A stretch of 64,000 nt of DNA from positions 3,835 to 67,834 of the forward strand of contig JAZGGI010000008.1 in the NCBI GenBank assembly GCA_036480375.1, in the 5' to 3' direction. Shown here in pieces: positions 9,614-27,956 of the stretch; the stretch's first letter is position 1, and the number at the start of each line of letters is the position of its first letter. Origin of the DNA: Candidatus Zixiibacteriota bacterium (GTDB taxonomy: Bacteria; Zixibacteria; MSB-5A5; GN15; JAAZOE01). A program made the translations under genes and the position numbers. Under the pieces are notes generated by a model that worked only from the letters and a program-made list of their open reading frames with translations, did no database searches and was not told the origin of the DNA.

Positions 9614-10834
9614 TTAATATGTTATACCAGACCCTATTCTGGGGGCAGGACCGTCTCGAAAGATAAAATTCACCAAATATACTGCATCACCTATGTTGAC
9701 GTATTTATCCATGTTTACATTGGCTCGCCAACCGGGCCAGGAGGGTGCCGGGCCATTCTTAAACACATGATTTATCAGATAAACGGCGTCTCCGACATCC
9801 ACTCCCCAATCTCCATTGGCGTCTCCCGGCTGATAATTAAAATCGATATGCACCGGGCCGTCGCCGACATTATAGGTATTTATAATTTGTCCCTCAGAAT
9901 TTATTCGGAATATCCGGTCCCCAAAAGTGCAGGCAAATGAGGTCGTATCCTGAAAAGCTACGATTCCCATCGAACCGGAATCAACATAAATCGGATTATT
10001 CGCGTCATGATAAATTTCAAAAGTTTCGCAATTATAGGAATAAACTTCGCCATCGTCGGTCCATCCTCCGGCTGAAATATAGGCAATATTATCGGCTCCG
10101 ACGGCAAGCAGACTCGGGTCCCCGCCCAGCTCTTTAGAATCGATGATGCTATTGGAAGCGGGATCAATACGATATACCGCTCCGCGATTCATCCAGTAAT
10201 CTCCGGTACAAATGCAGTGTATAATTCCCTGCATATCGACTGCCAGGAACTGAGGGTTGGTTCCGGTCAGGATTTCATAATCATTCATAACAGTATCGGC
10301 GAGGCAGTCATAGACAACTACTCTTCCCTGACCCCAGGTGTATGTATCAAAATCGTATCCGGTAACGGCGATATAGGCGCGATCGTTATAGATAATTATT
10401 CCCTCGGGTGATTGACCCACTTCGACGGTTATTACTATTTCACCGGTAGTGACATCGACTTTGGCGACGCTGTTGTTGACCATTAAGGTGACATAAAGAT
10501 ATTGATCGTCAAAAAATGCCATCCAAAACGGATTGCTGTATTCGGGCAGCTCAATCCATCCAACGGTCGTTTCATTATTTAGATTTATTATTTGAATCTC
10601 AGACGTCCCGGATAAGACTACATAAGCCAGAGTGTCTCGGATAATTATTTGATTGGGAAAACTATAAATATCGGTTCCAATCGCGATTATGTTGTTTGTA
10701 ACCTGTCCGGTATTCAAATCAATTTTTGAAAGTGTTTCGCCCGAGGTATTGACAACGTAAGCCGTTGGATCGGCGGCAAATATAATAGAAGCATAAAATA
10801 GCCCCAAAAATAAAAAACATCCAATGCGTATCAT
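9614..10834 (-). CDS. Secreted YVTN-type beta-propeller protein with two C-terminal dockerin-like repeats
   Basis: It has a signal peptide and repeated ~40-aa units (AYVVNTSGETLSKIDLNTGQV, LYVTLMVNNSVAKVDVTTGEI, AYIAVTG...). The C-terminus is GDANGDWGVDVGDAVYLINHVF...VNMDKYVNIGDAVYLVNFIF. Its ATG overlaps the stop of the upstream receptor gene (ATGA). Confidence 0.75.
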   Translation of the reverse strand: MIRIGCFLFLGLFYASIIFAADPTAYVVNTSGETLSKIDLNTGQVTNNIIAIGTDIYSFPNQIIIRDTLAYVVLSGTSEIQIINLNNETTVGWIELPEYSNPFWMAFFDDQYLYVTLMVNNSVAKVDVTTGEIVITVEVGQSPEGIIIYNDRAYIAVTGYDFDTYTWGQGRVVVYDCLADTVMNDYEILTGTNPQFLAVDMQGIIHCICTGDYWMNRGAVYRIDPASNSIIDSKELGGDPSLLAVGADNIAYISAGGWTDDGEVYSYNCETFEIYHDANNPIYVDSGSMGIVAFQDTTSFACTFGDRIFRINSEGQIINTYNVGDGPVHIDFNYQPGDANGDWGVDVGDAVYLINHVFKNGPAPSWPGWRANVNMDKYVNIGDAVYLVNFIFRDGPAPRIGSGITY

Positions 10835-13516: not shown

Positions 13517-14821
13517 TTACTCATCCTTAAGTATAATCTGATAATGCGGGAAGACTTCAACCGCCGGTATCGTCAGATTAAATACCAGACCGTCAACCGT
13601 ACTCATGTTTCCATTGGCGTCAATAAAGTACATTGTCGTCGCTTTACTGACTTCCGATTCGGTATTATTGACCGTCACCATACCATTTTCAAAAATAAGC
13701 TGTTTGGTAGTATCCGGGAACGTGAAATGCACGGTGGTATCGAATTCCGTCCAATCATAAGTACGGTAAAACCGCCTTTTCGATTGTGCCACAGTAGGAT
13801 CACAATTAATATATACCTGGAACGTATCTATTGTTATATACGGGAGGAAATCGGGATTGATGCTGACAACCGTAATTTCAACAAAGAAATCGTTTATGGT
13901 AGTATCAATATCTAAAGGATCAGTAGAAATCGTATCCAGAATAGTATCCATCGCCAGTTCGCATAACCCGGCTGAATCTACGGGCAGATAGAATGAATCG
14001 ACAATTCCCCAGAAACCCCAAAGCAAAGTATCATAATAAGTGGTGTCTGGAGCCAGAGGAAGCTGGGCCAGGGGATCCATTATGTGCGTGGATATGGTTG
14101 TATCGATGGTTGTATCGATAACTAAAGGATCAGGAGAAATGGTATCCAGAATTACTATATAAAAAAACCATTCCGCATAATAAACTTCCTGCTCATAAAT
14201 CGAATCGGGAGGTACTAATAGGGAATCCGGGTGAAAGATACCTATCGAATCATACTTGAATATTGGAGTCCTTGAGGGATCAAAAGTTTTGGAAGTAAAT
14301 GCTGTATCGGCCGAAACTACGTCCCAGGCTGAATCAATGGTCATGGCGTAATCAATACGGAATGAATCAATCCAGGTGAATGTATCCGGTCTTGTAAAGC
14401 TGAAAGTATAAGCTTGTTGCGGATTGAAACCAAAGACAACAGATGTTGTGTCAATAATGATTGAATCAACCGAAATCACAGTGGTATCAATCGGGGTGAC
14501 AGTAGTGTCAATAATGATTGAATCAACCGAAATCACAGCGGTATCAATTGAGGTGATATAGGTTCCTGAACCCAGGGTACCGATAAATCCATTGGTGTCG
14601 GTATAAACCGATTCAAGCCAGCCGATATCCGGCTCGACGGTCAAAAGTACGGAATCGACGCCGAACATTTGATAATCATTGTCGATCTTCAAGTGAAACA
14701 CCGGATAGGTATTATGATGTTTCGGAATTGGATTTACGGTATTGTCATCATTTTCGAACCAACTGCATCCTGTTATCAGCAATAATAATATTGCCGTCAG
14801 GAACGAAATCAATATTCTCAT
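13517..14821 (-). CDS. Lipoprotein of unknown function, Thr/Asp/Ile-rich with internal repeats
   Basis: The start was moved to ATG 14821 (MRILISFLTAILLLLITGC, lipobox ITGC) behind GGGAGGAAC. Repeats are ISVDSIIIDTT... x2 and ILDTIS(P/T)DPL(V/D)IDTTI x2. Confidence 0.6.
   Translation of the reverse strand: MRILISFLTAILLLLITGCSWFENDDNTVNPIPKHHNTYPVFHLKIDNDYQMFGVDSVLLTVEPDIGWLESVYTDTNGFIGTLGSGTYITSIDTAVISVDSIIIDTTVTPIDTTVISVDSIIIDTTSVVFGFNPQQAYTFSFTRPDTFTWIDSFRIDYAMTIDSAWDVVSADTAFTSKTFDPSRTPIFKYDSIGIFHPDSLLVPPDSIYEQEVYYAEWFFYIVILDTISPDPLVIDTTIDTTISTHIMDPLAQLPLAPDTTYYDTLLWGFWGIVDSFYLPVDSAGLCELAMDTILDTISTDPLDIDTTINDFFVEITVVSINPDFLPYITIDTFQVYINCDPTVAQSKRRFYRTYDWTEFDTTVHFTFPDTTKQLIFENGMVTVNNTESEVSKATTMYFIDANGNMSTVDGLVFNLTIPAVEVFPHYQIILKDE
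14448..14548. repeat. In-frame 57-bp tandem duplication inside the lipoprotein gene
   Basis: The 44-nt core GTGTCAATAATGATTGAATCAACCGAAATCACAG(T/C)GGTATCAAT occurs at 14448 and 14505 with 1 mismatch. Confidence 0.85.
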
Positions 14822-14955
14822 TTGTTCCTCCCGAAAGTTTCGAAACGCAAGGCCATAATAATAATACTTTCGGCCCCGCCGGGCAAGGAAAATTATCCCT
14901 TTTTTATTACTCAGACGTCTTGAGCGGCTGGTTTGTGCAATTGGCACGAGGCAGG

Positions 14956-17145
14956 TCAAGCGATATTTTTTTGCTTCTCCCAGCGATTTCCAAATGACAG
15001 CAATCCTCCCAGTACAAGAAGGATAGTTCCCGCCCAAAGAATATTCATTGTTGGTTTTTTGGAGACCTCCAAAATCAGGCGATCTTCGGGATTTTTATCG
15101 GTTAAGCCCTCGACGGAAATGCGAACGGCACCCTGATCAGCATAGATTTGCTCCAATCGAACCCGATGATTTTCAAGACCTTCCCTGAGGGGAACGTCGA
15201 TATACTCCATCCCTCCGGCGGGTCTGTAAATTATCGCAGGAGTTATGATTCCCATTTGCCCCAAAGTATCGGTCACCTCAATTTCGGCACCGAATTTCAT
15301 CTCCCCGCCTTCGGCGTGAGCGTCAGTTGCAAAGCCTTTAAATGCGAAAGAGTATGAACCAAGAGGTATGGCATGAGACTGTTCTAATATTATCCCGTTT
15401 TGAGCCGACAAGTCCTGGATTTGCTCAGGAGCGAAATAAATATCATATAATAAATGACGCGAAATATAAGGCTTTTTCATTAAGCCCTGAGATCGCTCAG
15501 ACCAATATAATTTTGGCCGTGCCTCATAAATTTCCCCGCTGTCGGACACCTTAAGAAGAATTTCGTTTTGAGGATTTTCCAAATGAGAGGTCAGTCCCTG
15601 ATATTCAATCTCAAGATTAAATACCGATCCGGTTTCATTACGATTAATAACAATTTTTTCTCCCAAAGCATAAGCCGACGATCCCAGGATGCCCAAAAGC
15701 ATAAGGGCGAATCCAAAATGACTCAACTGAGCTCCCGCGGATTTGATTTTACCTGGCAACAATTTAATCAAAGCAATCAGATTGGAGATGACCGCCACCG
15801 ACACCGTAAAAATATATAATAGATTGGTAAATTCTTTAACTCCCCGGAAATAACATACCAAACTAATAACCAGCGCGACTACAATCGAGATAATACTCTT
15901 TTTCAACAAATCCTTGAGATTTCCGCCATTCCAAGCCATAGCCGGAGCCAATCCCAGAAAGATCCCCATCAGGATTGCGAGGGGAAACGTGATTTTCGTA
16001 TAGACCGTCGTATCCACCGCGCCGGCTTCACCAAAAACGCTCGTAATCAGCGGCCAGGATGTCCCGGAAAGAACTAACAATGCGATTAAAATTAATACCC
16101 AAACGGAAAACAAAAGAGCAAACTGCTTTGAGGTCATTGACAGATTGACGGCCGGGCCCTTGACCCGCTTAAATCTTATCACGAAATAAAACAAGGCCAG
16201 AAGGATCGAACCCGACATGAAACTAATAAGTAAATTATTAACTCCCAAGTCTACGAAACTATGGACCGAGAAATCCGCCAGCACTCCCGAGCGAGTCAAA
16301 AACGTGCCATACACTACTAACAGAAAAATTAATATGGCCATGAACAGATTTGTCTTTGGAAGAGAACCGCTTCTTCTTTCAATTAATAATCCATGAACCA
16401 ATGCCAGCGAAATCATCCAGGGGATAAAAGAGGAATTTTCTACCGGGTCCCAAGCCCAGTAACCGCCCCAACCCAGAGTCTTATAAGCCCAAAAGCCGCC
16501 CATAATATTTCCGGCAGCCAGGGTCACGGCAACGACCGTAACCGGGACGAAAACAATCGTGAGCCAATTCTTATAATCATTTTTAATCAGAGCCGCCAGC
16601 GCGATTGCATACGGAACTGCCGCGGCCGCATATCCGATAAATATTACCGGCGGATGAATAACCATCCAGGGGTCAATCAGCAAAGGATTTAATCCGGCTC
16701 CTTCGGGCTGCGCCACGGGTAACTTTTCAAAGGGCGATAATATCAACAGCATAACGCAGAAAAAGAAATTTATCAGACCGTAAACAAACATCGCATGATT
16801 GGTATATTCGCGGCCCCGATAGATTAGATAAAACCCGAAAAAGGCCAGAAGCGCCAGCCATAATAAATAAGTGCCCTGCTGACCGGCCCAGAATGCGGAA
16901 ATTAAATAAAATAGCGGCAGGTCTGACGATGAATAATCATAAACATATTTGTATGAATAATCACCGGAAATGAAATAATAAAACAAAAGGGCGCACGCCA
17001 TTAATACCAGCGCGGTAAAATATTTATAACTTAGACGGCCCAACTCGGCGAATTTCGCCTTGCCTCGCAATACCATAAAATAACTGAAGGTGCAGGTCAG
17101 GCACGCGGCCGTGGTGAGTACTATTAGAAAGTTGCCTAAATTCAC
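14956..17145 (-). CDS. ccmF: Cytochrome c-type biogenesis protein CcmF (heme lyase component)
   Basis: It is polytopic and carries the WWD-type motif WGGYWAWDPVENSSFIPW plus a long C-terminal periplasmic domain. It sits in an operon with ccmE, ccmD, ccmC, ccmB and ccmA. Confidence 0.9.
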   Translation of the reverse strand: MNLGNFLIVLTTAACLTCTFSYFMVLRGKAKFAELGRLSYKYFTALVLMACALLFYYFISGDYSYKYVYDYSSSDLPLFYLISAFWAGQQGTYLLWLALLAFFGFYLIYRGREYTNHAMFVYGLINFFFCVMLLILSPFEKLPVAQPEGAGLNPLLIDPWMVIHPPVIFIGYAAAAVPYAIALAALIKNDYKNWLTIVFVPVTVVAVTLAAGNIMGGFWAYKTLGWGGYWAWDPVENSSFIPWMISLALVHGLLIERRSGSLPKTNLFMAILIFLLVVYGTFLTRSGVLADFSVHSFVDLGVNNLLISFMSGSILLALFYFVIRFKRVKGPAVNLSMTSKQFALLFSVWVLILIALLVLSGTSWPLITSVFGEAGAVDTTVYTKITFPLAILMGIFLGLAPAMAWNGGNLKDLLKKSIISIVVALVISLVCYFRGVKEFTNLLYIFTVSVAVISNLIALIKLLPGKIKSAGAQLSHFGFALMLLGILGSSAYALGEKIVINRNETGSVFNLEIEYQGLTSHLENPQNEILLKVSDSGEIYEARPKLYWSERSQGLMKKPYISRHLLYDIYFAPEQIQDLSAQNGIILEQSHAIPLGSYSFAFKGFATDAHAEGGEMKFGAEIEVTDTLGQMGIITPAIIYRPAGGMEYIDVPLREGLENHRVRLEQIYADQGAVRISVEGLTDKNPEDRLILEVSKKPTMNILWAGTILLVLGGLLSFGNRWEKQKNIA

Positions 17146-17148
17146 GTC

Positions 17149-17535
17149 TTAAGCCTCTTGATCCAACCCCTGATATTTCGAGGGACATTTAACGAGCAAT
17201 TGATCGGCCACAAAAACCCCGTTATCGTAGCGTCCTTTGGCGACCACCGATGTAGCCTGTTCAAAATTCCCCGGAACCACGCCGCCATAAATTACTTTGA
17301 GCCTAAAATCGGATTCAGGATTTTCAAGGTCGGTTATTACAAATTCCAGGCGAGACTCTTCGGCATTGTAATTGACTGCGTCAAAATCGATTTTACCCAT
17401 AACCTGAACCGTCCCCTGCGTTGTTGATACTTTGGTCAGGGGTACATATGTGACAGTGGTTGAAACGAAGGAATATAATCCCCAGGTGACAAAGACGGCA
17501 ATTATCAGCAAACCGGCAATATATTTAGTTTTCAC
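17149..17535 (-). CDS. ccmE: Heme chaperone CcmE, CxxxY variant
   Basis: It has a single N-terminal TM, an OB-fold-sized body and the C-terminal motif LLVKCPSKYQG, where canonical CcmE has HxxxY. The start is GTG. Confidence 0.85.
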   Translation of the reverse strand: MKTKYIAGLLIIAVFVTWGLYSFVSTTVTYVPLTKVSTTQGTVQVMGKIDFDAVNYNAEESRLEFVITDLENPESDFRLKVIYGGVVPGNFEQATSVVAKGRYDNGVFVADQLLVKCPSKYQGLDQEA

Positions 17536-17537
17536 TT

Positions 17538-17642
17538 CTAATCCTCAAGCTTCTTAACTTTTCTATCTAACATCAGTAGATATACGAACAAGGCTACCCA
17601 AATGAGAAGGGTAACGGCCATGACCATGTAATTGGAAGTCAT
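17538..17642 (-). CDS. ccmD: CcmD-like small membrane protein (34 aa, absent from the ORF track)
   Basis: My translation is MTSNYMVMAVTLLIWVALFVYLLMLDRKVKKLED, one TM helix followed by a basic tail. Its ATG overlaps the ccmC stop (ATGA), and its stop lies 2 nt before the ccmE GTG. Confidence 0.6.
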   Translation of the reverse strand: MTSNYMVMAVTLLIWVALFVYLLMLDRKVKKLED

Positions 17643-18304
17643 TTCATTAACTCCTCATAAACTTTGCGTTCTTTAACAAAAATCTTAATCGTTAATTTAT
17701 ACATCCAGGCAAAGACCATCGTGAACGCGATAAGAGCCGGGAAAAACACCGATGTGGTCGTTCCCGACATTGTAATTTTTCCCGATTCGTCAACTATCGA
17801 ATCAGAGGGATGCAAAGACGGCATTACGCGAGGGATGACAAATACCAGAAAAGGAACCGCCAAAAACGCGAAAATGGCATAAACGGCCGCCAGACGCCCC
17901 CGTTTTTCGGGATCATCAACCGCCGAACGCAGGGCGAAATATGCTCCATAAATCAGAAGCAGTATAAAAATAGATGTCTCCCGGGGATCCCAATTCCAAA
18001 ACGACTGCCAGGTTACTTTTGCGAATATTGAACCCGTTATTGTCGCCAGCAAACAGAATAATAAACCCAGACCGGCCGCCGCGCGCGAACGATCGTCGTC
18101 AATTATATTCCCGTTCTTGAGATACCTGATTGACATAATCATTGAAATCAAAAAGGCCAATACGGCCACCCAGGCCTGGGGCACATGAAAGTAAAATATG
18201 CGGCTCGCGGCTCCGATCGATTGCTGAGGCGCAGGAAATACAAAGGCCGCGATTATGACCCATGTCATTAAGGCAAACAATATAATTTTCAACCAACCGG
18301 ACAT
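17639..18304 (-). CDS. ccmC: Heme exporter protein CcmC
   Basis: It is a six-TM protein with the WWD motif variant SFWNWDPRETS. Confidence 0.9.
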   Translation of the reverse strand: MSGWLKIILFALMTWVIIAAFVFPAPQQSIGAASRIFYFHVPQAWVAVLAFLISMIMSIRYLKNGNIIDDDRSRAAAGLGLLFCLLATITGSIFAKVTWQSFWNWDPRETSIFILLLIYGAYFALRSAVDDPEKRGRLAAVYAIFAFLAVPFLVFVIPRVMPSLHPSDSIVDESGKITMSGTTTSVFFPALIAFTMVFAWMYKLTIKIFVKERKVYEELMK

Positions 18305-18386
18305 TATTTATCCTCAATCCATAACTGGCCAATATAAATAAATTTTGAATTAAAACAAACGAATACGCGATAAGTTCCAATTTGTC

Positions 18387-19094
18387 TTAATCGTTCCATA
18401 CAAATTCAAAAAGCATTAAACTGGCCGTAATCATTACCACCGAATAGGCGAAAAGCAATTGAATTTCCGGCGAAGCAGCTGCGAAACCCGCGCCGGGCGA
18501 CAACGCCTTTTTGGTACCTTCAATAGCGCCGATCAATAATGGCAAGAGAATCGGAAATGATAATACGGCAAATAAAGCCCCCTTGACACCAGCTTTGGCG
18601 ATAAGGGCGGCGATCAATGTAGTCGTCCCTACCAAGGCAATTCCGCCCAGAAACAAAATTACCAAAAAGAGCTGGAAATTTTGGACATTGACGTCCGTCA
18701 TGATGATAAACATCGGAGTAATAATTACTTCCAGAATTATTAACAGAAAGAAATTGAAAACCAGTTTTCCCAGATAGACCGCGGTGGAATCGGCCGTTAG
18801 TTTTAATATGGTTGAAGTTTTGGCTTCTTCTTCTCTGATAAATACCTGAGCCAGCCCTGACATCGCCGCAAAGAAAATAATAATCCAAAAAAGCGAGGCA
18901 TATACGGCAGGTTCCAGATTCATTTGTCCCACGGAAAATGAGACAACTGTCAATGTCGTAATGCCGAAAAGCAAAATTGCGTTTAATGCGTAACGGGTTC
19001 TAAACTCGCACCGGATATCCTTACGAAGGATCGCGACCGACTTAGCTATTAAGCTGGTAGAGTTTTTCGGCAATCCCATACTCCTCTTTTTCAT
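18387..19094 (-). CDS. ccmB: Heme exporter permease CcmB
   Basis: It is a polytopic protein of ~230 aa next to ccmA. The start is uncertain (ATG 19094 or ATG 19079), and either overlaps the ccmA 3' end by 38-53 nt. Confidence 0.8.
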   Translation of the reverse strand: MKKRSMGLPKNSTSLIAKSVAILRKDIRCEFRTRYALNAILLFGITTLTVVSFSVGQMNLEPAVYASLFWIIIFFAAMSGLAQVFIREEEAKTSTILKLTADSTAVYLGKLVFNFFLLIILEVIITPMFIIMTDVNVQNFQLFLVILFLGGIALVGTTTLIAALIAKAGVKGALFAVLSFPILLPLLIGAIEGTKKALSPGAGFAAASPEIQLLFAYSVVMITASLMLFEFVWND

Positions 19095-19659
19095 TAGTCG
19101 CGATTATCAATATCCCGTTTTCCTTCTGCCTTTCAATAACTTTTGAAACCAGATTTTTGCCATCGTCATCAAGATTAGAAGTTGGCTCATCAAGCAGCAA
19201 AAAAGCAGGCTTATTTAACAACGCCACGGCGTATTTAAGCCTCTGCTTCATTCCCGATGAATAGGCGCCGTATTTATCTTTGCCTCTCCCTTTTAATCCA
19301 ATCTCTTTAAGAGTTGTTTTTATTTCCTCCGAAGTGATTGATACGCCTCTCATGGTAGCGAAAAACCTGAGATTCTCTTCGGCCGTCAATGGATCATAGA
19401 GCGTCATTTCCGGGCCGACATATGACAGGATTTGACGGGTGGTGGAACGATTTAACCTTCCGCTTGAATCGTAATATATAACTTCTCCTCGGGTTGGAGA
19501 CGCCAGCCCGGCCAGAAGGCGCAACAGGGTCGTTTTCCCTGAACCGTTGCGGCCGGTTATAGCCAGTGACTGGCCGCTTTGAAGCTCGAATGATACGTCT
19601 CTGAGAACCTTCCGAAACCCAAAATTCTTGAATAACTTTTTAACTTCCAACCTGTACAT
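19042..19659 (-). CDS. ccmA: Heme exporter ATP-binding protein CcmA
   Basis: It has Walker A GRNGSGKTT, the signature YSSGMKQRL and Walker B LLLDEP. Confidence 0.85.
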   Translation of the reverse strand: MYRLEVKKLFKNFGFRKVLRDVSFELQSGQSLAITGRNGSGKTTLLRLLAGLASPTRGEVIYYDSSGRLNRSTTRQILSYVGPEMTLYDPLTAEENLRFFATMRGVSITSEEIKTTLKEIGLKGRGKDKYGAYSSGMKQRLKYAVALLNKPAFLLLDEPTSNLDDDGKNLVSKVIERQKENGILIIATNEKEEYGIAEKLYQLNS

Positions 19660-19802: not shown

Positions 19803-22112
19803 ATGTATAAAAAAACCCGGAGTATCGATTTGAAAACGCGATTAAGCCTTGGAATACTTTATACTTTTGCATTTTGGGTACTAATTTTGAGCGGCGTCGC
19901 TCAATCAGATATCATTCTGGTTCCGGCCCAACGAACGACAATTCAAATAGGAATCAACGCCGCTTCCGAAGGTGACACTGTTTTGGTCGCGCCCGGGATA
20001 TACTCCGGCCCGGGAAATTCCAGATTAGATTTCCTTGGAAAACGAATCCTGGTAACTTCTGAAGGCGGTTCAGAGCTAACAACTATCTTGACGACCGGAG
20101 AATCTCGCTCAGTCACATTTGATAGCGGGGAAGATTCCCTGTCCATATTAGACGGATTTACAGTATCTGGCGGATATGAAATCAACTTCGATTGGTCTCA
20201 GCCGTTTCGAGGTGGGATACTATGTATCGATACCTCTCCCCTAATTCGAAACTGCATCATCCGAGATTGTTATGCTGAAGAAGGCGGAGGGCTGTTTTTA
20301 TCGGGCGGCGCGCCCCGCATCGAGAACTGTCTTATAGAAAATAATAAGGCGTCTCATCGCGGGGGAGCCATAATGGCTTTGTGCGAGCGGTTGACGATAG
20401 TCAATTCCACTATTACTAAAAACCGTGTCAAAACGACTGAACAGGGGCGGCTGGCATCAGGAGGAGGTATAAAAAACCTTGGGAATTTGTTCCTGAAAAA
20501 CTGCAATATATCGGGCAACAGAGTCACACATGATTCCGGCCTCCCTTCTATGGATGATTTCGCGCTGGCTCAGGGGGGCGGAATATATAGTTTATTGGGT
20601 CGTGTCGAAATTGACAGTTGTATTATAGCCCGCAATTCGGCGGGCACAGGAGCAGGGTTAGTATGCGGCCTGGCTGACGCTACAATCTCATTTACCAAAA
20701 TATTTAACAACACATCTTCGGTTTATGCCGGGATAGCATTTATAAGCGGTTTCCAAAATCCGCTTGATGTACGAAATTCCACATTTGCCTGCAATTATTC
20801 CGCCCGTGATCTTTGCGACGGCATAGCGATACTAAGCTCGCCCTCATTTGTAAAGGCTGAGAAAACAACTGAAAAAAATTTCGAATTGGGAAATTATTCC
20901 GCAGGTGGAATCGTAAAGAATAATCTATTCGCCTTCAATTCATCTACTCCTGTTTATAACGACGATGCCGCATACACTCTTGATATTTCATTTAATAATA
21001 TCTGGCATACTGTCTCGGGGCCCGACTACGGAGGAGTCTTTACCGATTTAACCGGCATTGATGGAAACATCTCTTACGATCCAATGTTTTGCTCAGTATC
21101 CGATAGCGGGCTTGATATTGACGCCTATTCCCCTTGCGCCGACGGTGGAGAGTTGGGCGAAGCGATTGGGGCCGGTCAGGTTCTTTGCGATTTGTATGCT
21201 GCGGGTCCGCAAAGAATATCGGTTAAGTTAAATGAGGATACTCCCGCCGGAAATCAGGCTATTTTGGATAATACGCTAAATCAACTCCGCCCCTGGGATT
21301 CGCTTCACATTGCGTCAGATAATTCGACCGTATTAATCGAAAATTTATCAATTGATTTCCCTATATATGTTTTCGGCGGCGGTAAGTACCGAGACAGCTC
21401 GTTTGTTTTATCCAAAGATTTTTCGCTCCAGAACCGCCCGACCGTTACAATCAGCGATTTCGCGATATTGCGAAATGTATGGATTGACGGGTATCACGGT
21501 GACGGATTATTGCTCGGCTATAACGCAATTAACTTCTCAAACTCTCCGACTATAATAGATTCATCATATCTAACCGCGTTTGAATCTGATGCCGCACTGG
21601 CCATATTTGAAGCGTCTCCGCTAATAAGAAATTGCGAAATAACCAACGGCATATCCGCTATCGGTAACGGTGATGTTATCGCGTCTAATAATTTCTGGGA
21701 ATGTCCTGACATAATTTGCATTGATAGCCTTTTGCAATATGATAGTCTGTTTTATACCGGTACGATTTTTGTCGAACCATTCCTGACTCAAAGCCCGACT
21801 TCGGCCGAAGATTTAGTAAATAATAATTTACCACATAAAATAGTCCTCTCACAAAACTATCCCAATCCGTTCAACGCTTCCACTAAAATAGAGTTTACGA
21901 TTCATCGGGCCGGACATGTCGAGTTATTTATATTTGATATTCTCGGCCGCCGCGTCGCGAATATTATATATAAACACCTACCCGCCGGTTCACATCAGGT
22001 AATCTGGAGCGGCAAAAACGATTCCGGCAATGATTCCCCGTCGGGGATATACATTTACCGCCTTAAGTTAAATAACCAAACAGAAATCAAGAAATTGATA
22101 CTATTGAAATAA
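19803..22112 (+). CDS. Secreted right-handed parallel beta-helix (PbH1) repeat protein with a T9SS-type C-terminal sorting domain
   Basis: It has a signal peptide and repeated NCxIxxNxAxxGGGI units (NCIIRDCYAEEGGGLF, NCLIENNKASHRGGAI, NCNISGNRV...). The C-terminus is LSQNYPNPFNASTKIEFTI...GIYIYRL. Confidence 0.75.
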   Translation: MYKKTRSIDLKTRLSLGILYTFAFWVLILSGVAQSDIILVPAQRTTIQIGINAASEGDTVLVAPGIYSGPGNSRLDFLGKRILVTSEGGSELTTILTTGESRSVTFDSGEDSLSILDGFTVSGGYEINFDWSQPFRGGILCIDTSPLIRNCIIRDCYAEEGGGLFLSGGAPRIENCLIENNKASHRGGAIMALCERLTIVNSTITKNRVKTTEQGRLASGGGIKNLGNLFLKNCNISGNRVTHDSGLPSMDDFALAQGGGIYSLLGRVEIDSCIIARNSAGTGAGLVCGLADATISFTKIFNNTSSVYAGIAFISGFQNPLDVRNSTFACNYSARDLCDGIAILSSPSFVKAEKTTEKNFELGNYSAGGIVKNNLFAFNSSTPVYNDDAAYTLDISFNNIWHTVSGPDYGGVFTDLTGIDGNISYDPMFCSVSDSGLDIDAYSPCADGGELGEAIGAGQVLCDLYAAGPQRISVKLNEDTPAGNQAILDNTLNQLRPWDSLHIASDNSTVLIENLSIDFPIYVFGGGKYRDSSFVLSKDFSLQNRPTVTISDFAILRNVWIDGYHGDGLLLGYNAINFSNSPTIIDSSYLTAFESDAALAIFEASPLIRNCEITNGISAIGNGDVIASNNFWECPDIICIDSLLQYDSLFYTGTIFVEPFLTQSPTSAEDLVNNNLPHKIVLSQNYPNPFNASTKIEFTIHRAGHVELFIFDILGRRVANIIYKHLPAGSHQVIWSGKNDSGNDSPSGIYIYRLKLNNQTEIKKLILLK

Positions 22113-22169: not shown

Positions 22170-23270
22170 TTAATCATGCGATTTTGCCAGAGGCGGATGT
22201 TCAATCGATGGAACTCCTTCGGGATCGCCGGTAGTCATGTAATTGATCGATGACTGCAACAGGGCTGCCGCATAGCGAGTGTTGTGAATACCGTGCGACT
22301 TATCTTCATGGACGAAAGCCCAGTTGAAAATAGCGCCGACTGAATCTGCATCGGGAACGACCAAATCATCAGTAGGCTCCCAGGCATCATCTTCGGCAAT
22401 GTACTCAAGAAGTCCGGCTGCGATTAAGAGAGTCTCCAGTTCCTCCATCAAGTCGTCGATTTCTGTCTGGACACCCTCGGTGTCGTCGCCGTCGCCATCG
22501 AAGTCAAAATCCGTCACCCGATCGAAATCATCGATTTCCGTATAGGTGGCATGACAGCCATCGACGTTACAAGCGTCAGTGTTCTCATCCTCTTCAGTTT
22601 CCATCCAGAAAGTGTGGCCACCCATTACATAATCGACGCTGTTATCGAAATGGCATGTGACGCAGCCTTCGGCCACGCCGGTGGAATGCCAGGAGTCGTC
22701 GTCGTAATCGTAACCATCGTATTCATAGGCGTTCTCGCCAATCAGCATGTCGGACTGGTTGCTGTGATGCGGCCCGAAGTGGCCGCTCAACTCCACGCTG
22801 TCGACGACGTACGTTTCAATGTCGCGGCGCCCATGGTGGCATGCAACGCAAAGATTCGATCGCCCCCGGTTGTAGGTGGCGCCGTTGCCCAGTGTGACCG
22901 CCGCGGTTGTTCTGAGCGCGAAATCACCGTCGTTGTGAGGATCGTGGCAGGTGAAACAGCCTACGGACGTGAAATGATCGGCGGTTACATCGGCGCCGGT
23001 TACGCTGGCTATAAACCCTTCATTGGTGTGACAGGGTCGGCAGGATCCGCTGCTTCTCATAGCATTGCCAGACGCATGCGCTGAGTTCTCCCACTGCCTA
23101 GTGGCCAGAATAACCTCCGTACCGAGATCGTCGGCGCCGTCATGACAATCGAAGCAATTGTTCGGGCCGTTGTCAGCCACTTCAACGGTGCCAACTATCT
23201 CCCGTTCACAAGAGACAAAGACCATCAACACAAAAATAATGATCGCTGTCAGAATAACATTGTCCTTCAT
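22170..23270 (-). CDS. Multiheme c-type cytochrome lipoprotein (5 CXXCH + 1 CX4CH) with an acidic heme-free C-terminal half
   Basis: The start was moved to ATG 23270 (MKDNVILTAIIIFVLMVFVSC, lipobox FVSC) behind GGAGGG. Motifs are CFDCH, CRPCH, CFTCH, CVACH, CVTCH and CNVDGCH. Confidence 0.8.
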   Translation of the reverse strand: MKDNVILTAIIIFVLMVFVSCEREIVGTVEVADNGPNNCFDCHDGADDLGTEVILATRQWENSAHASGNAMRSSGSCRPCHTNEGFIASVTGADVTADHFTSVGCFTCHDPHNDGDFALRTTAAVTLGNGATYNRGRSNLCVACHHGRRDIETYVVDSVELSGHFGPHHSNQSDMLIGENAYEYDGYDYDDDSWHSTGVAEGCVTCHFDNSVDYVMGGHTFWMETEEDENTDACNVDGCHATYTEIDDFDRVTDFDFDGDGDDTEGVQTEIDDLMEELETLLIAAGLLEYIAEDDAWEPTDDLVVPDADSVGAIFNWAFVHEDKSHGIHNTRYAAALLQSSINYMTTGDPEGVPSIEHPPLAKSHD

Positions 23271-23323
23271 TTTTCCCTCCTTGTGGAGTTTTATTTTTTT
23301 AATTTCATTTTCTTCAACTACCT

Positions 23324-24895
23324 TCAAAACTTGTATGAATATGACACTTCGATAATGTTTGCCGTGTAATATTCGGCATATGGCCTGGACATATCGGCCA
23401 GATTATCAAAATTATCGATGGTATAAGTAATCTCTAATTTGTGGGCGTGGGTCACGGAATAAAGAGTCTTAAAATAAATTCGCGAGCTTTCAATATCTAC
23501 ATCCTGTCGACTACGGACATACCGGCCGCCAGCGCCTAATTGAAATTCATGGCATCGCGGGCTCAAGTAATTTCCAGTTAAAATATTATCGCTGAATTCG
23601 AATAAACCGCCCGAATTATCATATTCGCCTTTTAAATAAGAATATTGATAATCCAGTTCACCAAATCTGGAATTATTCAAATAACCCGTCAGACTCCATT
23701 TCCCATAACTCGATTCGCTCCCAATTTCGTTATTCTCTATTTTTCTATTTTCCCTTATTAAGCGGACATTGCCATATTCCCGCGGTAAGTCATATTTGAG
23801 CGATACGCGGTATCGGGAATAATCCCGGTCGCCGGTTAATGTTTGACCCTCATTGACAGCTTTATTTTCAGAGCCATAATTAGCTCGTGTGGTTAATTGT
23901 GCCGTTATTTTAGCCCATGTTGACAAATAATAACCGTTAGAAGATAACTCGTCCGGGACCATATCATTTCCTTTATGGCGATATCCGAGAGTAATTCCCG
24001 CCCTTCGTGGCCATACTTTGCTGATAAATAATCCTTGAGTTATATTATCCGTCGCGGCCAGATCGCCGGTGCGCCGAGCTCGATCCCAGATAAAATTGTA
24101 CTTCAGACTATATCCGGAACCATAATTATACTTCATCCCGCCCCAGGCTGTATTAGCGGAAAGAGTATCAAATCGCCTCTTCACTTTACTCGTGTAATGC
24201 TGAAAGCCGCCGTTGAGTATAACTTTTTGATAAAACGGCAATCGGATTACTGCGTTGATTCTGGTTCGAGTTGAATTACGATCATTGGCCATATCAATGC
24301 CGTCGTCGAATGAAGTTGACCGATAATCCGCCTGAACATTATAGAACGAATGCGTAAAACGAAGTCCGGAGTTAAAATATTTTTGGCTATAATCGACCTT
24401 ATTCGTTAGAATAGTTGGACCGTCGTTATACAGATTCGTCGCAGAGCCTTTTTTCCCGACCGAACCAATCCCTCCATATAATCGAATCATGCGATGAGGC
24501 TGCAGCCATGCATTACCGCCGAATGTTTCTCTTTCGGTATTAGCTGAGCTGGAAGAATTATAAATCCTTCGATATTGATTATAATTCAGATTAATTCCAT
24601 AGTATCTTGCCCTCGTGACTCCCAATGAGAGATTCCGATTTTTTAGAGTGATATTTTTGAAATTAGCATTCACACAAGTGCCATTATCGAAACGATAATT
24701 ATACTTCTCAAGAGATATCTGGAATCCCTGATACATATTAAAATTGGGTTGATAGACGCTCGGACTTCCTTCTTCAGACAAATCCAAAAATCCGATTTTA
24801 ACCATTCCGGTCTGCCGATCGGCCATCGCAACTCCGGCCGATATCAGGAGAACAGCCGCGACTATCCCGATTATTCTATAATTTTTATTAAACAA
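23324..24895 (-). CDS. Outer-membrane beta-barrel protein, candidate MtrB/PioB-like porin partner of the decaheme cytochrome
   Basis: It has a signal peptide (...ISAGVAMA), an alternating beta-strand pattern rich in Y/G/N/R and the C-terminus VSYSYKF. I prefer TTG 24895, 5-6 nt after AGGAGGGAGGAG and 15 nt after the upstream stop. The ORF-track ATG at 24934 is the alternative. Confidence 0.65.
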   Translation of the reverse strand: MFNKNYRIIGIVAAVLLISAGVAMADRQTGMVKIGFLDLSEEGSPSVYQPNFNMYQGFQISLEKYNYRFDNGTCVNANFKNITLKNRNLSLGVTRARYYGINLNYNQYRRIYNSSSSANTERETFGGNAWLQPHRMIRLYGGIGSVGKKGSATNLYNDGPTILTNKVDYSQKYFNSGLRFTHSFYNVQADYRSTSFDDGIDMANDRNSTRTRINAVIRLPFYQKVILNGGFQHYTSKVKRRFDTLSANTAWGGMKYNYGSGYSLKYNFIWDRARRTGDLAATDNITQGLFISKVWPRRAGITLGYRHKGNDMVPDELSSNGYYLSTWAKITAQLTTRANYGSENKAVNEGQTLTGDRDYSRYRVSLKYDLPREYGNVRLIRENRKIENNEIGSESSYGKWSLTGYLNNSRFGELDYQYSYLKGEYDNSGGLFEFSDNILTGNYLSPRCHEFQLGAGGRYVRSRQDVDIESSRIYFKTLYSVTHAHKLEITYTIDNFDNLADMSRPYAEYYTANIIEVSYSYKF

Positions 24896-24909
24896 GACTC
24901 TCCTCCCTC

Positions 24910-25815
24910 CTAATTTCGCCGGTGGCAATAACATGCTTCAGGGTTTCCTGTTAGTTTAAGCCCCAAGTCCTGGTCGAGTAGAAAACGGTTTCTGAAATCG
25001 AAAGAACCATGAACCTGGCTATGGCAATCAATACATTCAAGCGAGGCATAAGCTCCATCGTGCGCCGTAGCGGAATGCCCGACTCCTTCGCTATGGCATT
25101 GCCGACACAAACCATTACCCGGTTGCGTCAGCAACCTATCATTGGGACTGCCGTGCGGTGAATGGCACGAAATACATCCTGATCCTTCGGTCGAAAAAGT
25201 ACTCGTGGCTTCATGCTCGGCTATGAAGGGTCCACTTTGTTCGGGATGACAGGAAACACAATTTACTCCTGTTCCATGGCCAAAATCCGGTGATGCCTTG
25301 CCGATAAAATCATGACATCCGGTGCAGGTAGCTCCTCCGAATCCGAGAGGATGGTTTGATCTTTGGATAAACTCATTAGCAGTTTGTTTGTGACATTTTT
25401 CACAAATCAAGACATCACTTTGATTAATTGCGTCATTATCACTTGAATGAATCGCATGACAAGAAACACAGGATAAGTCAAGTTCTGCAAAAGATATCAT
25501 TCCCGAAGCGTTTTCATTGAGATGTGGATTATGGCACTCCGTGCAAATTACCCCCATCTTATGTACTCCTGAGGAAGCGAGACACAATATATTGTCTATC
25601 GTTGGATCGTCAACATGCGCATCGCCGTCACCATGACAACTTGTACAGCCGATTGTAGTCGAACCGGCTCGAACCTTTAATTTTAATGCATGGGGACTTT
25701 CGACCAGTGTTTTGTCGTACCCATCATGACAATCCAAACAGGTTTCACTCGTGACTTGACCCAGTCCCGCTTGATATCCCAATAATAGAAATATTAAGAT
25801 TAGCCGTGATTTCAT
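24910..25815 (-). CDS. Periplasmic decaheme c-type cytochrome (MtrA/DmsE/MtoA/PioA-like class)
   Basis: Ten CXXCH motifs occur in ~300 aa: CLDCH, CTSCH, CTECH, CVSCH, CEKCH, CTGCH, CVSCH, CISCH, CRQCH, CIDCH. It has a signal peptide, MKSRLILIFLLLGYQAGLG. The preferred start is ATG 25815, with 25830 possible. Confidence 0.85.
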   Translation of the reverse strand: MKSRLILIFLLLGYQAGLGQVTSETCLDCHDGYDKTLVESPHALKLKVRAGSTTIGCTSCHGDGDAHVDDPTIDNILCLASSGVHKMGVICTECHNPHLNENASGMISFAELDLSCVSCHAIHSSDNDAINQSDVLICEKCHKQTANEFIQRSNHPLGFGGATCTGCHDFIGKASPDFGHGTGVNCVSCHPEQSGPFIAEHEATSTFSTEGSGCISCHSPHGSPNDRLLTQPGNGLCRQCHSEGVGHSATAHDGAYASLECIDCHSQVHGSFDFRNRFLLDQDLGLKLTGNPEACYCHRRN

Positions 25816-25874
25816 ATTTTTTCCACCCATTGGCTATTTTTACAAATAATAAAAATTGTCCTCAAATCTTGAAT

Positions 25875-25904
25875 AACATACCATTTTTGTCGTCATTTTG
25901 TCAA
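25875..25904 (-). promoter_or_regulatory. Candidate promoter of the cytochrome/porin operon
   Basis: The minus strand reads TTGACA, an 18-nt spacer, then TATGTT, about 60 nt upstream of the ATG. Confidence 0.3.
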
Positions 25905-26055: not shown

Positions 26056-26343
26056 TCAAATCAAAGCGGCTACAGCGGCGGTACGGTCACGCCGAAACCG
26101 TTTCAAAATATCGTCAACCGGACATTCTTCACAGTTGAGATTGACATGAGTTGTAATTATAGACGATAGATTATCATCAAAAAGCGAGGCATGCTTTCCA
26201 GAGTACTGTTTCTTAGCCAAAAGATTAGCCCCCCGAAGTACATCACAGTCCTCACAATTTGGGACTTTGCGCACCTCTGCCAGCATCGCCGCAATTTCCT
26301 TTGCCGCCGGCATTCTCCTGAACGAAAACATTGACACTCCCAT
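26056..26343 (-). CDS. Small hypothetical protein with two CxxC pairs
   Basis: This 95-aa ORF contains CEDC and CEEC 44 residues apart, a possible zinc ribbon. I recognise no family. Confidence 0.35.
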   Translation of the reverse strand: MGVSMFSFRRMPAAKEIAAMLAEVRKVPNCEDCDVLRGANLLAKKQYSGKHASLFDDNLSSIITTHVNLNCEECPVDDILKRFRRDRTAAVAALI

Positions 26344-26449: not shown

Positions 26450-27142
26450 CTATTCAACTATATCGCCCAAGCGCGACCACCGCACTCTCTGGAAAAAATG
26501 CAACATATTATAAAAAACAGATTTTGGAATCGAGGTTAAATCGGCCAAGGTCACCTCGGGAGCGTCTTCATCCGGCGTCCATGACCAGTGAATCAGCATG
26601 GCCTGCCCCTGAATTAATTCAAGGTTCACCGGCCCCCAGAATCTTGAATCAGAGCTATTATCGCGATTGTCACCCATACAGAAAATATGATTTTTCCTGA
26701 CTACTACTTTGGGGAAATTATCACGCGGATTTGCCCCGGGAGGTATTATTCTGGAGCCGGTAAATTTCGAGAATTCGGGATCGGGAAATCGGACCCCGTC
26801 AATATACAACACTTTGTCAATTACTTCTACGACTTGCCCTTCGGTAGCTACGCATCGTTTGATATAATTCGTTTTCCGATCGACCGGATATCGAAAAACA
26901 ACCACGTCGCCCGGTTCGGGATTTCTGAAGGAGGGTAATCGCCAATTCGTTAACGGAATCTGGGCGCCGTATATAAATTTGTTAGCCAGGAAAAAATCGC
27001 CGATGAGCATCGTATCTTCCATCGATGATGAAGGAATTTTGTAGGCTTCCACGACTGAAGTTTTAATAATGAAAGCCAATATCAGGGCAATAATCAATGA
27101 CTTGGCGTATTCATAAGTTCCGGAAGATACTTTCTTCGACAA
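26450..27142 (-). CDS. lepB: Signal peptidase I
   Basis: It has an N-terminal TM, the catalytic Ser box PSSSMEDTML, the Lys box YIKRCVA and GDNRDNSSDSRFWG. Confidence 0.9.
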   Translation of the reverse strand: MSKKVSSGTYEYAKSLIIALILAFIIKTSVVEAYKIPSSSMEDTMLIGDFFLANKFIYGAQIPLTNWRLPSFRNPEPGDVVVFRYPVDRKTNYIKRCVATEGQVVEVIDKVLYIDGVRFPDPEFSKFTGSRIIPPGANPRDNFPKVVVRKNHIFCMGDNRDNSSDSRFWGPVNLELIQGQAMLIHWSWTPDEDAPEVTLADLTSIPKSVFYNMLHFFQRVRWSRLGDIVE

Positions 27143-27224: not shown

Positions 27225-27956
27225 TTAGTCTACCGTCTGGACAAATCGATCCCAGCGAATCCTCCCCAAAAATCGAGAAGTATTATCCCAGATCGATCTC
27301 GGGATAGTTGTCAAATCCGTCATGTCAATCTGAGTAGCGTCTTTATCCTCAGCAATCGACCATTGAATTATAAAGACATATCCCTCGATTAAATCAAGAG
27401 ACACCGGCCCCCAGAATCGGGAATCATTGCTTTTATCACGGTTATCGCCCATCGCGAAGATGGTTCCTTTAGGTACCCGATAAGGCCCGAAGTTATCACG
27501 ACGCGGTACAAATTGAGCGGGATATTTTCCATCCAAATATTTCGAGAATTCAGGATCCGGGAATATTTCACCGTCAACATAAAGAACTTTATCCTTCACC
27601 GCAACGATTTGACCCTCAACAGCAATGCATCGCTTGACATAATCGGTTTTGCGGTCGCCGGGATACTTGAAAGTAATAATATCTCCGGGCTGGGGCGGCC
27701 TGACCGCCGGAAATCGCCAGTCGGTAAAGGGCACTTTCGCACCGTATAAAAATTTATTGGAAATTATCAAATCACCGATAAGGAGAGTATCTTCCATCGA
27801 TGATGAAGGCACTTTATAAGCTTCAGCTATCGAGGTCTTAATTATAAACGCGGCTATAACCGCGAATAATATTGCCTTGGCATAATCAAACGATTGAGTA
27901 ACGGCAGTCTTTTTTCTTTTATTTTCTTTCTTCTTCTTTTTTTTCTTTGGCATCAA
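27225..27956 (-). CDS. lepB: Signal peptidase I, tandem paralog with a polylysine N-terminus
   Basis: It has PSSSMEDTLL, YVKRCIA and GDNRDKSNDSRFWG. The N-terminus is MMPKKKKKKKENKRKK. Confidence 0.9.
   Translation of the reverse strand: MMPKKKKKKKENKRKKTAVTQSFDYAKAILFAVIAAFIIKTSIAEAYKVPSSSMEDTLLIGDLIISNKFLYGAKVPFTDWRFPAVRPPQPGDIITFKYPGDRKTDYVKRCIAVEGQIVAVKDKVLYVDGEIFPDPEFSKYLDGKYPAQFVPRRDNFGPYRVPKGTIFAMGDNRDKSNDSRFWGPVSLDLIEGYVFIIQWSIAEDKDATQIDMTDLTTIPRSIWDNTSRFLGRIRWDRFVQTVD

Follow-up and report, generated by a model that had tools for sequence, protein, structure and literature searches.

A window of 64,000 nucleotides (nt; 64 kb) from a Candidatus Zixiibacteriota bacterium (assembly GCA_036480375.1, contig JAZGGI010000008.1), which is the whole stretch of DNA that was analysed, encodes three co-directional genes on its minus strand, designated here A, B and C. 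With a probability of roughly 70%, these genes constitute a single operon that encodes an MtrAB-type porin-cytochrome conduit for electrons across the outer membrane, where A is a multiheme cytochrome, B is an outer-membrane β-barrel and C is a lipoprotein cytochrome. All three open reading frames (ORFs) are present as proposed in a first-pass annotation of this DNA, which also gave the B-C spacer of 53 nt correctly, while the A-B spacer is 14 nt instead of the 15 nt reported there. Gene B begins at TTG, 14 nt past the stop codon of A, behind the strong Shine-Dalgarno site GGAGGGAGGAGAG, and the strong Shine-Dalgarno sites together with the 14- and 53-nt spacers indicate that A-B-C form an operon. 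The triad is far beyond chance, as A and C are the only ORFs bearing CXXCH (X, any residue) in the 64-kb window and the triad is kept in more than 40 genomes.

The three gene products and their conservation

The product of gene A contains an N-terminal signal peptide and ten CXXCH motifs at residues 31, 62, 96, 121, 143, 169, 191, 219, 242 and 266. It is matched nearly end to end by the DmsE family model TIGR03508 (profile positions 2-254 of 258; 152.2 bits, E 1.7e-44), and its best phmmer match in the PDB is 6R2Q_A (E 1.5e-25), the ten heme motifs of the two sequences all being collinear and in register. This chain is MtrA of the Mtr complex of Shewanella baltica (PMC7198977). Many homologues of A are annotated by JGI as 'DmsE family decaheme'. 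Judged by its sequence, A is a divergent but genuine relative of MtrA/DmsE, the type to which it had previously been assigned. A homologue of the Geobacter Pcc/Ext systems was also considered and rejected, as A reaches only 130.3 bits with NF041028 (GSU2203-family decaheme), far under the cutoff of 325.

The earlier count of exactly ten CXXCH motifs in A is literally correct, but a conserved CYCH at the C-terminus adds a probable eleventh site. This motif is located on a tail of ~28 amino acids (aa) that extends past the part of A with homology to MtrA and the DmsE model; the aligned part of MtrA stops 9 residues short of the MtrA C-terminus, and such a tail is absent from MtrA. A motif of this kind is found in 43 of 43 locus orthologues of A (CX4CH in 22, CX1CH in 19 and CX2CH in 2; loci L001-L044, L048 and L049) and in all 120 best database homologues (CX1CH in 99, CX4CH in 18, CX2CH in 2 and CX6CH in 1), and it is also borne by the copy from Eisenbacteria. 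Cys302 and His303 of A are invariant. An eleventh heme is the simplest reading of these data, as some orthologues carry the canonical CX2CH and a contracted CKCH binds heme covalently in a tetraheme cytochrome of the anammox bacterium Kuenenia stuttgartiensis (Ferousi et al. 2019, as cited in PMC7096707); A is thus probably an undecaheme rather than a decaheme cytochrome. The Kuenenia motif has the same Cys-X-Cys-His spacing as A and 99 of its 120 closest homologues, but it occurs in another protein family, organism and position, the heme at the motif of A is putative, and orthologues of A carry CX2CH, CX4CH or CX6CH at the comparable position. The literature search gave no direct match for a heme motif of the CXCH or CX1CH type, and the CKCH precedent was reached through the citing review. 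The possibility that CYCH is a look-alike of Rieske box II was rejected, since box I is missing and the corresponding site reads CX2CH or CX4CH in orthologues.

Gene B encodes a protein of 523 aa with an isoelectric point (pI) of 9.35 and the C-terminus ...VSYSYKF, and the NCBI call for the identical protein (P0001) is likewise 523 aa, in agreement with the first-pass annotation. This 100% identical entry is a hypothetical protein from a metagenome-assembled genome (MAG) of candidate division Zixibacteria, and A and C also have matches among the proteins of that MAG. In a template-free AlphaFold2 (AF2) model from an alignment of 49 homologues (predicted local distance difference test score, pLDDT, 91.2), B has 26 strands and no plug domain, and its shortness is accounted for by the predicted inter-strand connections, none of which exceeds 13 residues. 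The top Foldseek match of this model in the PDB is 6r2q_B (MtrB; E 3.5e-17, template-modelling score TMq 0.80) and not an unrelated porin, while the runners-up have TM scores of at most 0.55, including 22-strand TonB-dependent receptors (~0.5) and the 26-strand LptD (0.45, rank 37). Two peculiarities of MtrB, itself a 26-strand barrel with surface loops of ~45 Å (PMC7198977), recur in the model: the early strands are short, and the loop that joins strands 1 and 2 contains a small helix. B is therefore, according to its predicted structure, a 26-strand barrel of MtrB-like fold. Weak matches to PF11854 (MtrB_PioB) occur in 9 of the 49 homologues, two of which were inspected and found collinear with the model (23.6 and 26.2 bits, the latter being the best; cutoff 23), and TIGR03509 matches one of the 49 (E 0.007). 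An exhaustive search of 1.84 billion representative proteins with the barrel profile yielded 173 relatives, and among the best 150 of these the full-length matches are ~504-557 aa, with no MtrB/PioB of canonical size and none above 557 aa, so that the compact MtrB-like barrels are a small, sharply bounded clade.

A synteny scan of one genome per species, with an alignment of 12 barrel sequences as the query, returned 47 loci, mostly labelled Zixibacteria and otherwise GN15, Calditrichota or Ignavibacteria (the last label being probably wrong). The A-B-C order is kept in these genomes: an orthologue of A lies directly upstream of the barrel gene at all 40 loci with room for it, beside the barrel rather than beside nrf or other reductase genes, and an orthologue of C lies directly downstream at 41 of 42 loci. 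The triad also occurs in a MAG of Eisenbacteria. The flanks are otherwise variable among the loci, and the triad around which they vary thus behaves like a self-contained cassette.

Gene C encodes a lipoprotein cytochrome, as previously described, with a lipobox-like ...FVSC ending in Cys21, five CXXCH motifs (residues 39, 77, 105, 141 and 203) and one CX4CH motif, CNVDGCH (residues 234-240). Its C-terminal half had been described as acidic, which is correct (residues 241-366, pI 4.05), but the acidity is not confined to that half (residues 22-240, pI 4.4; mature protein, pI 4.16). The lipoprotein Cys21 is invariant among homologues, as are C239 and H240, while C234 is at least 90% conserved and the spacer length of the CX4CH motif is variable. 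Six non-motif histidines (H65, H112, H168, H195, H219 and H329) are invariant or nearly so, and as these suffice for six bis-His hemes, C appears suited to electron transfer rather than catalysis, with all six hemes probably bis-His.

A profile of 59 homologues of C matches NrfA structures in the PDB (1oah, E 2.5e-6; also 2j7a and 2vr0) and OcwA (6i5b, E 3.2e-4). In the alignment with NrfA, heme motifs 1, 2, 5 and 6 of C correspond to four successive CXXCH motifs of NrfA, the sixth site (CX4CH) being aligned with the CRQCH motif, and the C-terminal helical region is included together with a conserved S-x-G-x-H-N segment; the two extra hemes of C are inserted between the second and third NrfA-aligned motifs. 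The aligned NrfA motifs are presumably hemes 2-5, leaving no counterpart of the catalytic CXXCK heme, and no CXXCK is found in C. The AF2 model of C (pLDDT 86.8) contains C-terminal helices at residues 267-284, 308-322 and 328-347. PF22113 (MtrC domain model) matches one short stretch of C with 28.8 bits, under its cutoff of 30, and no MtrC-family NCBIfam model matches C, which is consistent with the earlier view that the outer partner is not of the decaheme MtrC/OmcA type. On these weak sequence similarities, C is distantly related to NrfA/OcwA and is not MtrC-like. A nitrite-reductase operon of the Nrf type was rejected, as CXXCK and nrf neighbours are lacking and the barrel gene is always present. 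Residues 271-293 of C (approximately 22392..22460, minus strand; DFDFDGDGDDTEG) contain a DxDxDG-type acidic loop resembling calcium-binding loops, which is kept as DFDxDGxxEGVQxE in most homologues and deleted in a subset (e.g. P0145, P0149, P0167, P0174 and P0176).

Proposed conduit and competing explanations

In the proposed conduit, A would be exported to the periplasm, where System I would attach ten and probably eleven c-hemes, and would be inserted lengthwise in B, which would insulate its heme chain as MtrB does that of MtrA. In the Mtr complex, heme 10 of MtrA is found where the barrel opens to the cell exterior (PMC7198977). Should A be inserted in B with the orientation that MtrA has, its C-terminal end, comprising heme 10 and the CX1/2/4CH tail, would come to the outer mouth of the barrel, as B is nearly without surface loops, and the tail would be well placed for contact with C or with a substrate. 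C would dock at this mouth in the stead of MtrC and make contact at the cell surface with minerals, shuttles or other cells, while electrons would pass from or to inner-membrane quinol-linked cytochromes encoded elsewhere in the genome.

The assignment of C to the outer surface is favoured on balance, by analogy with characterised porin-cytochrome clusters, by its kinship with OcwA and by a 13-heme orthologue in a relative. To our knowledge, all characterised porin-cytochrome clusters (MtrC/OmcA, OmcB/C, ExtC/D) have their lipoprotein cytochrome on the outside. Lipoproteins of diderms nevertheless face the periplasm by default, and in enterobacteria an acidic +2 residue marks them for retention in the inner membrane. 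The main alternative, which is less probable, is a two-component arrangement in the style of MtoAB/PioAB, where A within B crosses the membrane and C is a periplasmic, membrane-tethered cytochrome that connects inner-membrane complexes with A on the periplasmic side; the external contact could then be the additional C-terminal heme motif of A. The products of mtoD and pioC, generally known to be periplasmic, would be a precedent, as these are the third genes of mtoA-mtoB-mtoD and pioA-pioB-pioC (clusters described in PMC5566968), but they are small soluble proteins and not lipoprotein multihemes. No recognised extracellular cytochrome is reported in the published Zixibacteria analyses (PMC3903129, PMC4411801), which also favours a periplasmic C, but among characterised electron-transfer proteins C is closest to OcwA, a terminal reductase at the cell surface of a Gram-positive metal reducer (PMC6703420). 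The 13-heme orthologue of C (L038:5944-8055, plus strand), from a MAG labelled Calditrichota, has 703 aa and 13 CXXCH motifs at the same post-barrel position, and suits an outward wire better than a periplasmic adaptor.

It is far less probable that the system is DmsEF-like and that C is a catalytic reductase or oxidase of the NrfA/OcwA type acting on a soluble outside substrate such as nitrite, hydroxylamine or sulfur oxyanions. C is distantly related to NrfA, many of its homologues have weak PF02335 matches, OcwA reduces nitrite and hydroxylamine in vitro (PMC6703420), and DmsEF and MtrDEF are MtrAB-type cores able to serve extracellular catalytic modules (PMC7198977). However, C contains neither CXXCK nor a counterpart of the catalytic heme of NrfA, its alignment starting at a later NrfA CXXCH, the six conserved non-motif histidines for six hemes leave no obviously open coordination site, and the triad has no genes of the nitrogen or sulfur cycle as neighbours at any locus examined. 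The least credible explanation dispenses with a conduit altogether and takes B as an ordinary barrel for diffusion or transport whose gene happens to share a transcript with those of two electron-transfer cytochromes of the periplasm. Barrels of 26 strands do serve other functions, e.g. LptD, and curated MtrB/PioB models leave B of the window unmatched, but MtrB tops the structural matches widely (TM 0.80 against 0.45 for LptD), the modelled barrel has no plug domain, pairing with an MtrA-family cytochrome is strict (40/40 loci), and no members of the barrel homologue set are reported without the cytochromes.

Several further results weigh against a three-part MtrAB-type conduit, in addition to the default facing of lipoproteins and the +2 signal. 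With the family models proposed in the first-pass annotation as a check, A matches TIGR03508 below its curated cutoff (152.2 against 192.2 bits), and B has no Pfam or NCBIfam match at E up to 1, including PF11854 and TIGR03509. The profile of 49 barrels, run against all PDB chains at E up to 10, found no sequence match, MtrB included, and the best 150 of the 173 relatives are likewise devoid of canonical-size MtrB/PioB; as the sequence profile finds no MtrB, the homology of B with MtrB rests mainly on the predicted fold, with marginal Pfam matches in relatives. A has ten conserved non-motif histidines for eleven hemes, so that the distal ligand of the eleventh is not obvious. Foldseek gave no meaningful PDB match for the model of C, and regular secondary structure is scarce in multiheme cytochromes. 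Finally, an inner-membrane electron-transfer partner is absent from the 64-kb window.

Genomic surroundings of the triad

The features of the locus, together with the electron-transfer genes found near the triad in some relatives, are listed in Table 1. The promoter-like site falls in a 225-nt AT-rich gap upstream of A, and an ORF of 95 aa without a Pfam match (26056..26343, minus strand) is situated just upstream of the operon promoter region.

Table 1. Positions of the triad and associated features (window coordinates; those preceded by L016 are from a relative)
Feature	Position	Strand	Basis
Gene A, periplasmic MtrA/DmsE-family multiheme cytochrome, 306 aa (predicted)	25830..24910	-	ORF, motifs, family models
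Gene B, compact 26-strand outer-membrane β-barrel, 523 aa (predicted)	24895..23324	-	ORF, AF2 model, Foldseek
Gene C, acidic lipoprotein hexaheme cytochrome, 366 aa (predicted)	23270..22170	-	Motifs, pI, family profile
C-terminal CYCH of A (residues 300-303), putative eleventh heme site	24922..24933	-	Orthologue conservation
CNVDGCH (CX4CH) of C, sixth heme site	22551..22571	-	Homologue conservation
Promoter-like site TTGACA-18-TATGTT, with TG	25875..25904	-	Consensus match only
ccmA-B-C-E-F, System I cytochrome c maturation (context, outside the operon)	14956..19659	-	Pfam
CcmE, Cys-variant	17149..17535	-	Sequence
Electron-transfer island around the triad, likely inner-membrane genes	L016:943-6547, L016:10663-15042; equivalents L017, L021, L039, L047	- (L016:943-6547)	

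The ccmABCEF operon is located 2.5 kb from the triad, whose heme motifs include CX1CH and CX4CH. Its CcmE reads ...LLVKCPSKYQG, where cysteine replaces the canonical heme-binding histidine of HxxxY, and thus belongs to the variant System I type, which bears out the earlier mention of a variant heme-attachment operon nearby. CcmE of the Cys type is the System I variant of Desulfovibrio, which matures CX4CH cytochromes. A functional tie between this operon and the non-standard heme motifs of the triad is plausible. No CcmH-like Pfam match was found in the tested ORFs adjoining the ccm operon. An ORF of 506 aa (13517..15037, minus strand) overlaps the 3' end of ccmF and, like another of 406 aa (9614..10834, minus strand), is unmatched by Pfam.

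A gene convergent with C (19803..22112, plus strand) encodes a secreted protein of 769 aa with a type IX secretion system (T9SS) sorting domain (Por_Secre_tail/CHU_C), in line with the T9SS-type sorting tails previously ascribed to the host. It was rejected as a member of the system, as it is not kept beside the triad in relatives. Directly upstream of the triad, 26450..27142 and 27225..27956 (both minus strand) are candidate tandem paralogues with signal-peptidase-I-like motifs (SSMEDT...GDNRDxSxDSRFWG), followed by candidate RseP-like (HELGHF) and Dxr-like genes, all provisionally identified from by-eye reading of the translations.

In some relatives, the triad lies beside a NapC/NirT-like hexaheme cytochrome (512 aa), cytochrome b and a Rieske protein, and a cytochrome b561 fused to 8 or 19 c-hemes, and further neighbours are a small tetraheme cytochrome, a TetR regulator and a 9-heme protein. 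None of these electron-transfer island genes is found within the present window. Two relatives contain a second pair by the triad (L021:202-2949, minus strand; L045:2430-5162, plus strand), consisting of a 323-aa decaheme cytochrome without the extra C-terminal motif, preceded by a TetR regulator, and then a protein of 583-590 aa unmatched by Pfam, which may be a second porin-cytochrome type.

Relation to known systems and significance

The closest structural reference is MtrCAB of Shewanella (6R2Q; Edwards et al. 2020, PMC7198977). The ten hemes of A are collinear with those of MtrA, the model of B shares with MtrB, its best fold match, the strand number, the strand 1-2 helix and the short early strands, and a multiheme lipoprotein cytochrome is encoded in the same operon. 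In contrast, B is clearly shorter, as the first-pass annotation had noted (523 aa against the 649-residue MtrB chain, and against ~650-800 aa with long extracellular loops in the MtrB/PioB family), its predicted connections of up to 13 residues replace the ~45 Å loops of MtrB, and it is not recognised by PF11854 or TIGR03509. The gene order is A-B-C instead of C-A-B, A carries the CX1/2/4CH tail that MtrA lacks, and C is a six-heme, NrfA/OcwA-like protein of 366 aa, unlike the ten-heme, four-domain 'staggered cross' of MtrC/OmcA. With MtoAB of Sideroxydans and PioAB of Rhodopseudomonas, which are Fe(II)-oxidising or electron-uptake systems, the triad shares a decaheme gene directly followed by a barrel gene and the lack of an MtrC-type gene, and earlier authors likened the Zixibacteria genes to these systems (PMC3903129). 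Set against their published descriptions, however, those systems have larger barrels (24-32 predicted transmembrane segments; PMC5566968), and the carriers specified by their third genes, mtoD and pioC, are small and soluble, unlike the lipoprotein hexaheme cytochrome C.

OcwA of Thermincola potens (6I5B) and NrfA resemble C in the profile matches, in four heme motifs and in the C-terminal helical region, and the three C-terminal helices in the model of C recall the C-terminal three-helix bundle of these proteins (PMC6703420). C differs from them in having six hemes (nine in OcwA, five in NrfA), no CXXCK and no evident heme with open coordination, and in being a diderm lipoprotein coupled to a porin-cytochrome core. 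The Geobacter Pcc (OmaB-OmbB-OmcB) and ExtABCD systems follow the same three-part logic of periplasmic multiheme cytochrome, barrel and lipoprotein multiheme cytochrome, and ExtA-ExtB-ExtC/D has the gene order of the triad and small lipoprotein cytochromes of 5-6 hemes. However, homology is lacking at the level tested, in view of the 130.3 bits of A with the GSU2203-family model, and the best fold match of B is MtrB, with no Geobacter Pcc structure among the matches.

Homologues of mtrAB in Zixibacteria have been published since 2013 for RBG-1 and later MAGs (Castelle 2013, PMC3903129; Baker 2015, PMC4411801; PMC9769843), and the core idea is thus known; these papers concern the same phylum and a pair of decaheme and porin genes. 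The A-B pair is almost certainly of the same gene family as the published 'mtrAB', the RBG-1 locus being identified by its context: as at the triad of some relatives, PetAB (Rieske protein and cytochrome b) and further multiheme cytochromes are nearby (PMC3903129). Homology to MtrA/MtrB is all that those papers describe, and they note a lack of extracellular cytochromes (PMC3903129, PMC4411801). The literature searched yielded no description of a conserved third gene with NrfA/OcwA affinity, of a compact 26-strand barrel form missed or marginally caught by the MtrB/PioB models, or of a universal extra heme motif that is mostly CX1CH.

It is possible, and is put forward only tentatively, that Zixibacteria, Eisenbacteria and their allies have a distinct, self-contained conduit, composed of an undecaheme MtrA-like wire with its last heme bound at a contracted or variable CX1/2/4CH site in the C-terminal tail, a nearly loop-less 26-strand MtrB-like barrel and a surface NrfA/OcwA-type hexaheme lipoprotein replacing MtrC. 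As PF11854 and TIGR03509 miss or only marginally catch the compact barrel, marker surveys based on them may undercount this conduit, which a model made specifically from the 173 relatives would remedy. For protein engineering, B is the smallest MtrB-like scaffold seen here, a nearly loop-less 26-strand sheath of 523 aa, and the natural occurrence of CX1CH, CX2CH and CX4CH as alternatives at one homologous position makes it possible to test how System I handles non-standard heme sites.

Zixibacteria, which are uncultured, are abundant in the communities of aquifers, sediments, deep mines and vents. Conclusions on their part in iron cycling have been based on the presence of mtrAB and the absence of extracellular cytochromes (PMC3903129, PMC4411801). 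If C is external, the case made from this absence for Fe(II) oxidation rather than Fe(III) reduction weakens, and if the three-part conduit proves true, the published inference that Zixibacteria are without extracellular cytochromes would be overturned. Such a conduit would also join the 'Gram-negative' Mtr core to the terminal cytochrome type of Gram-positive metal reducers.

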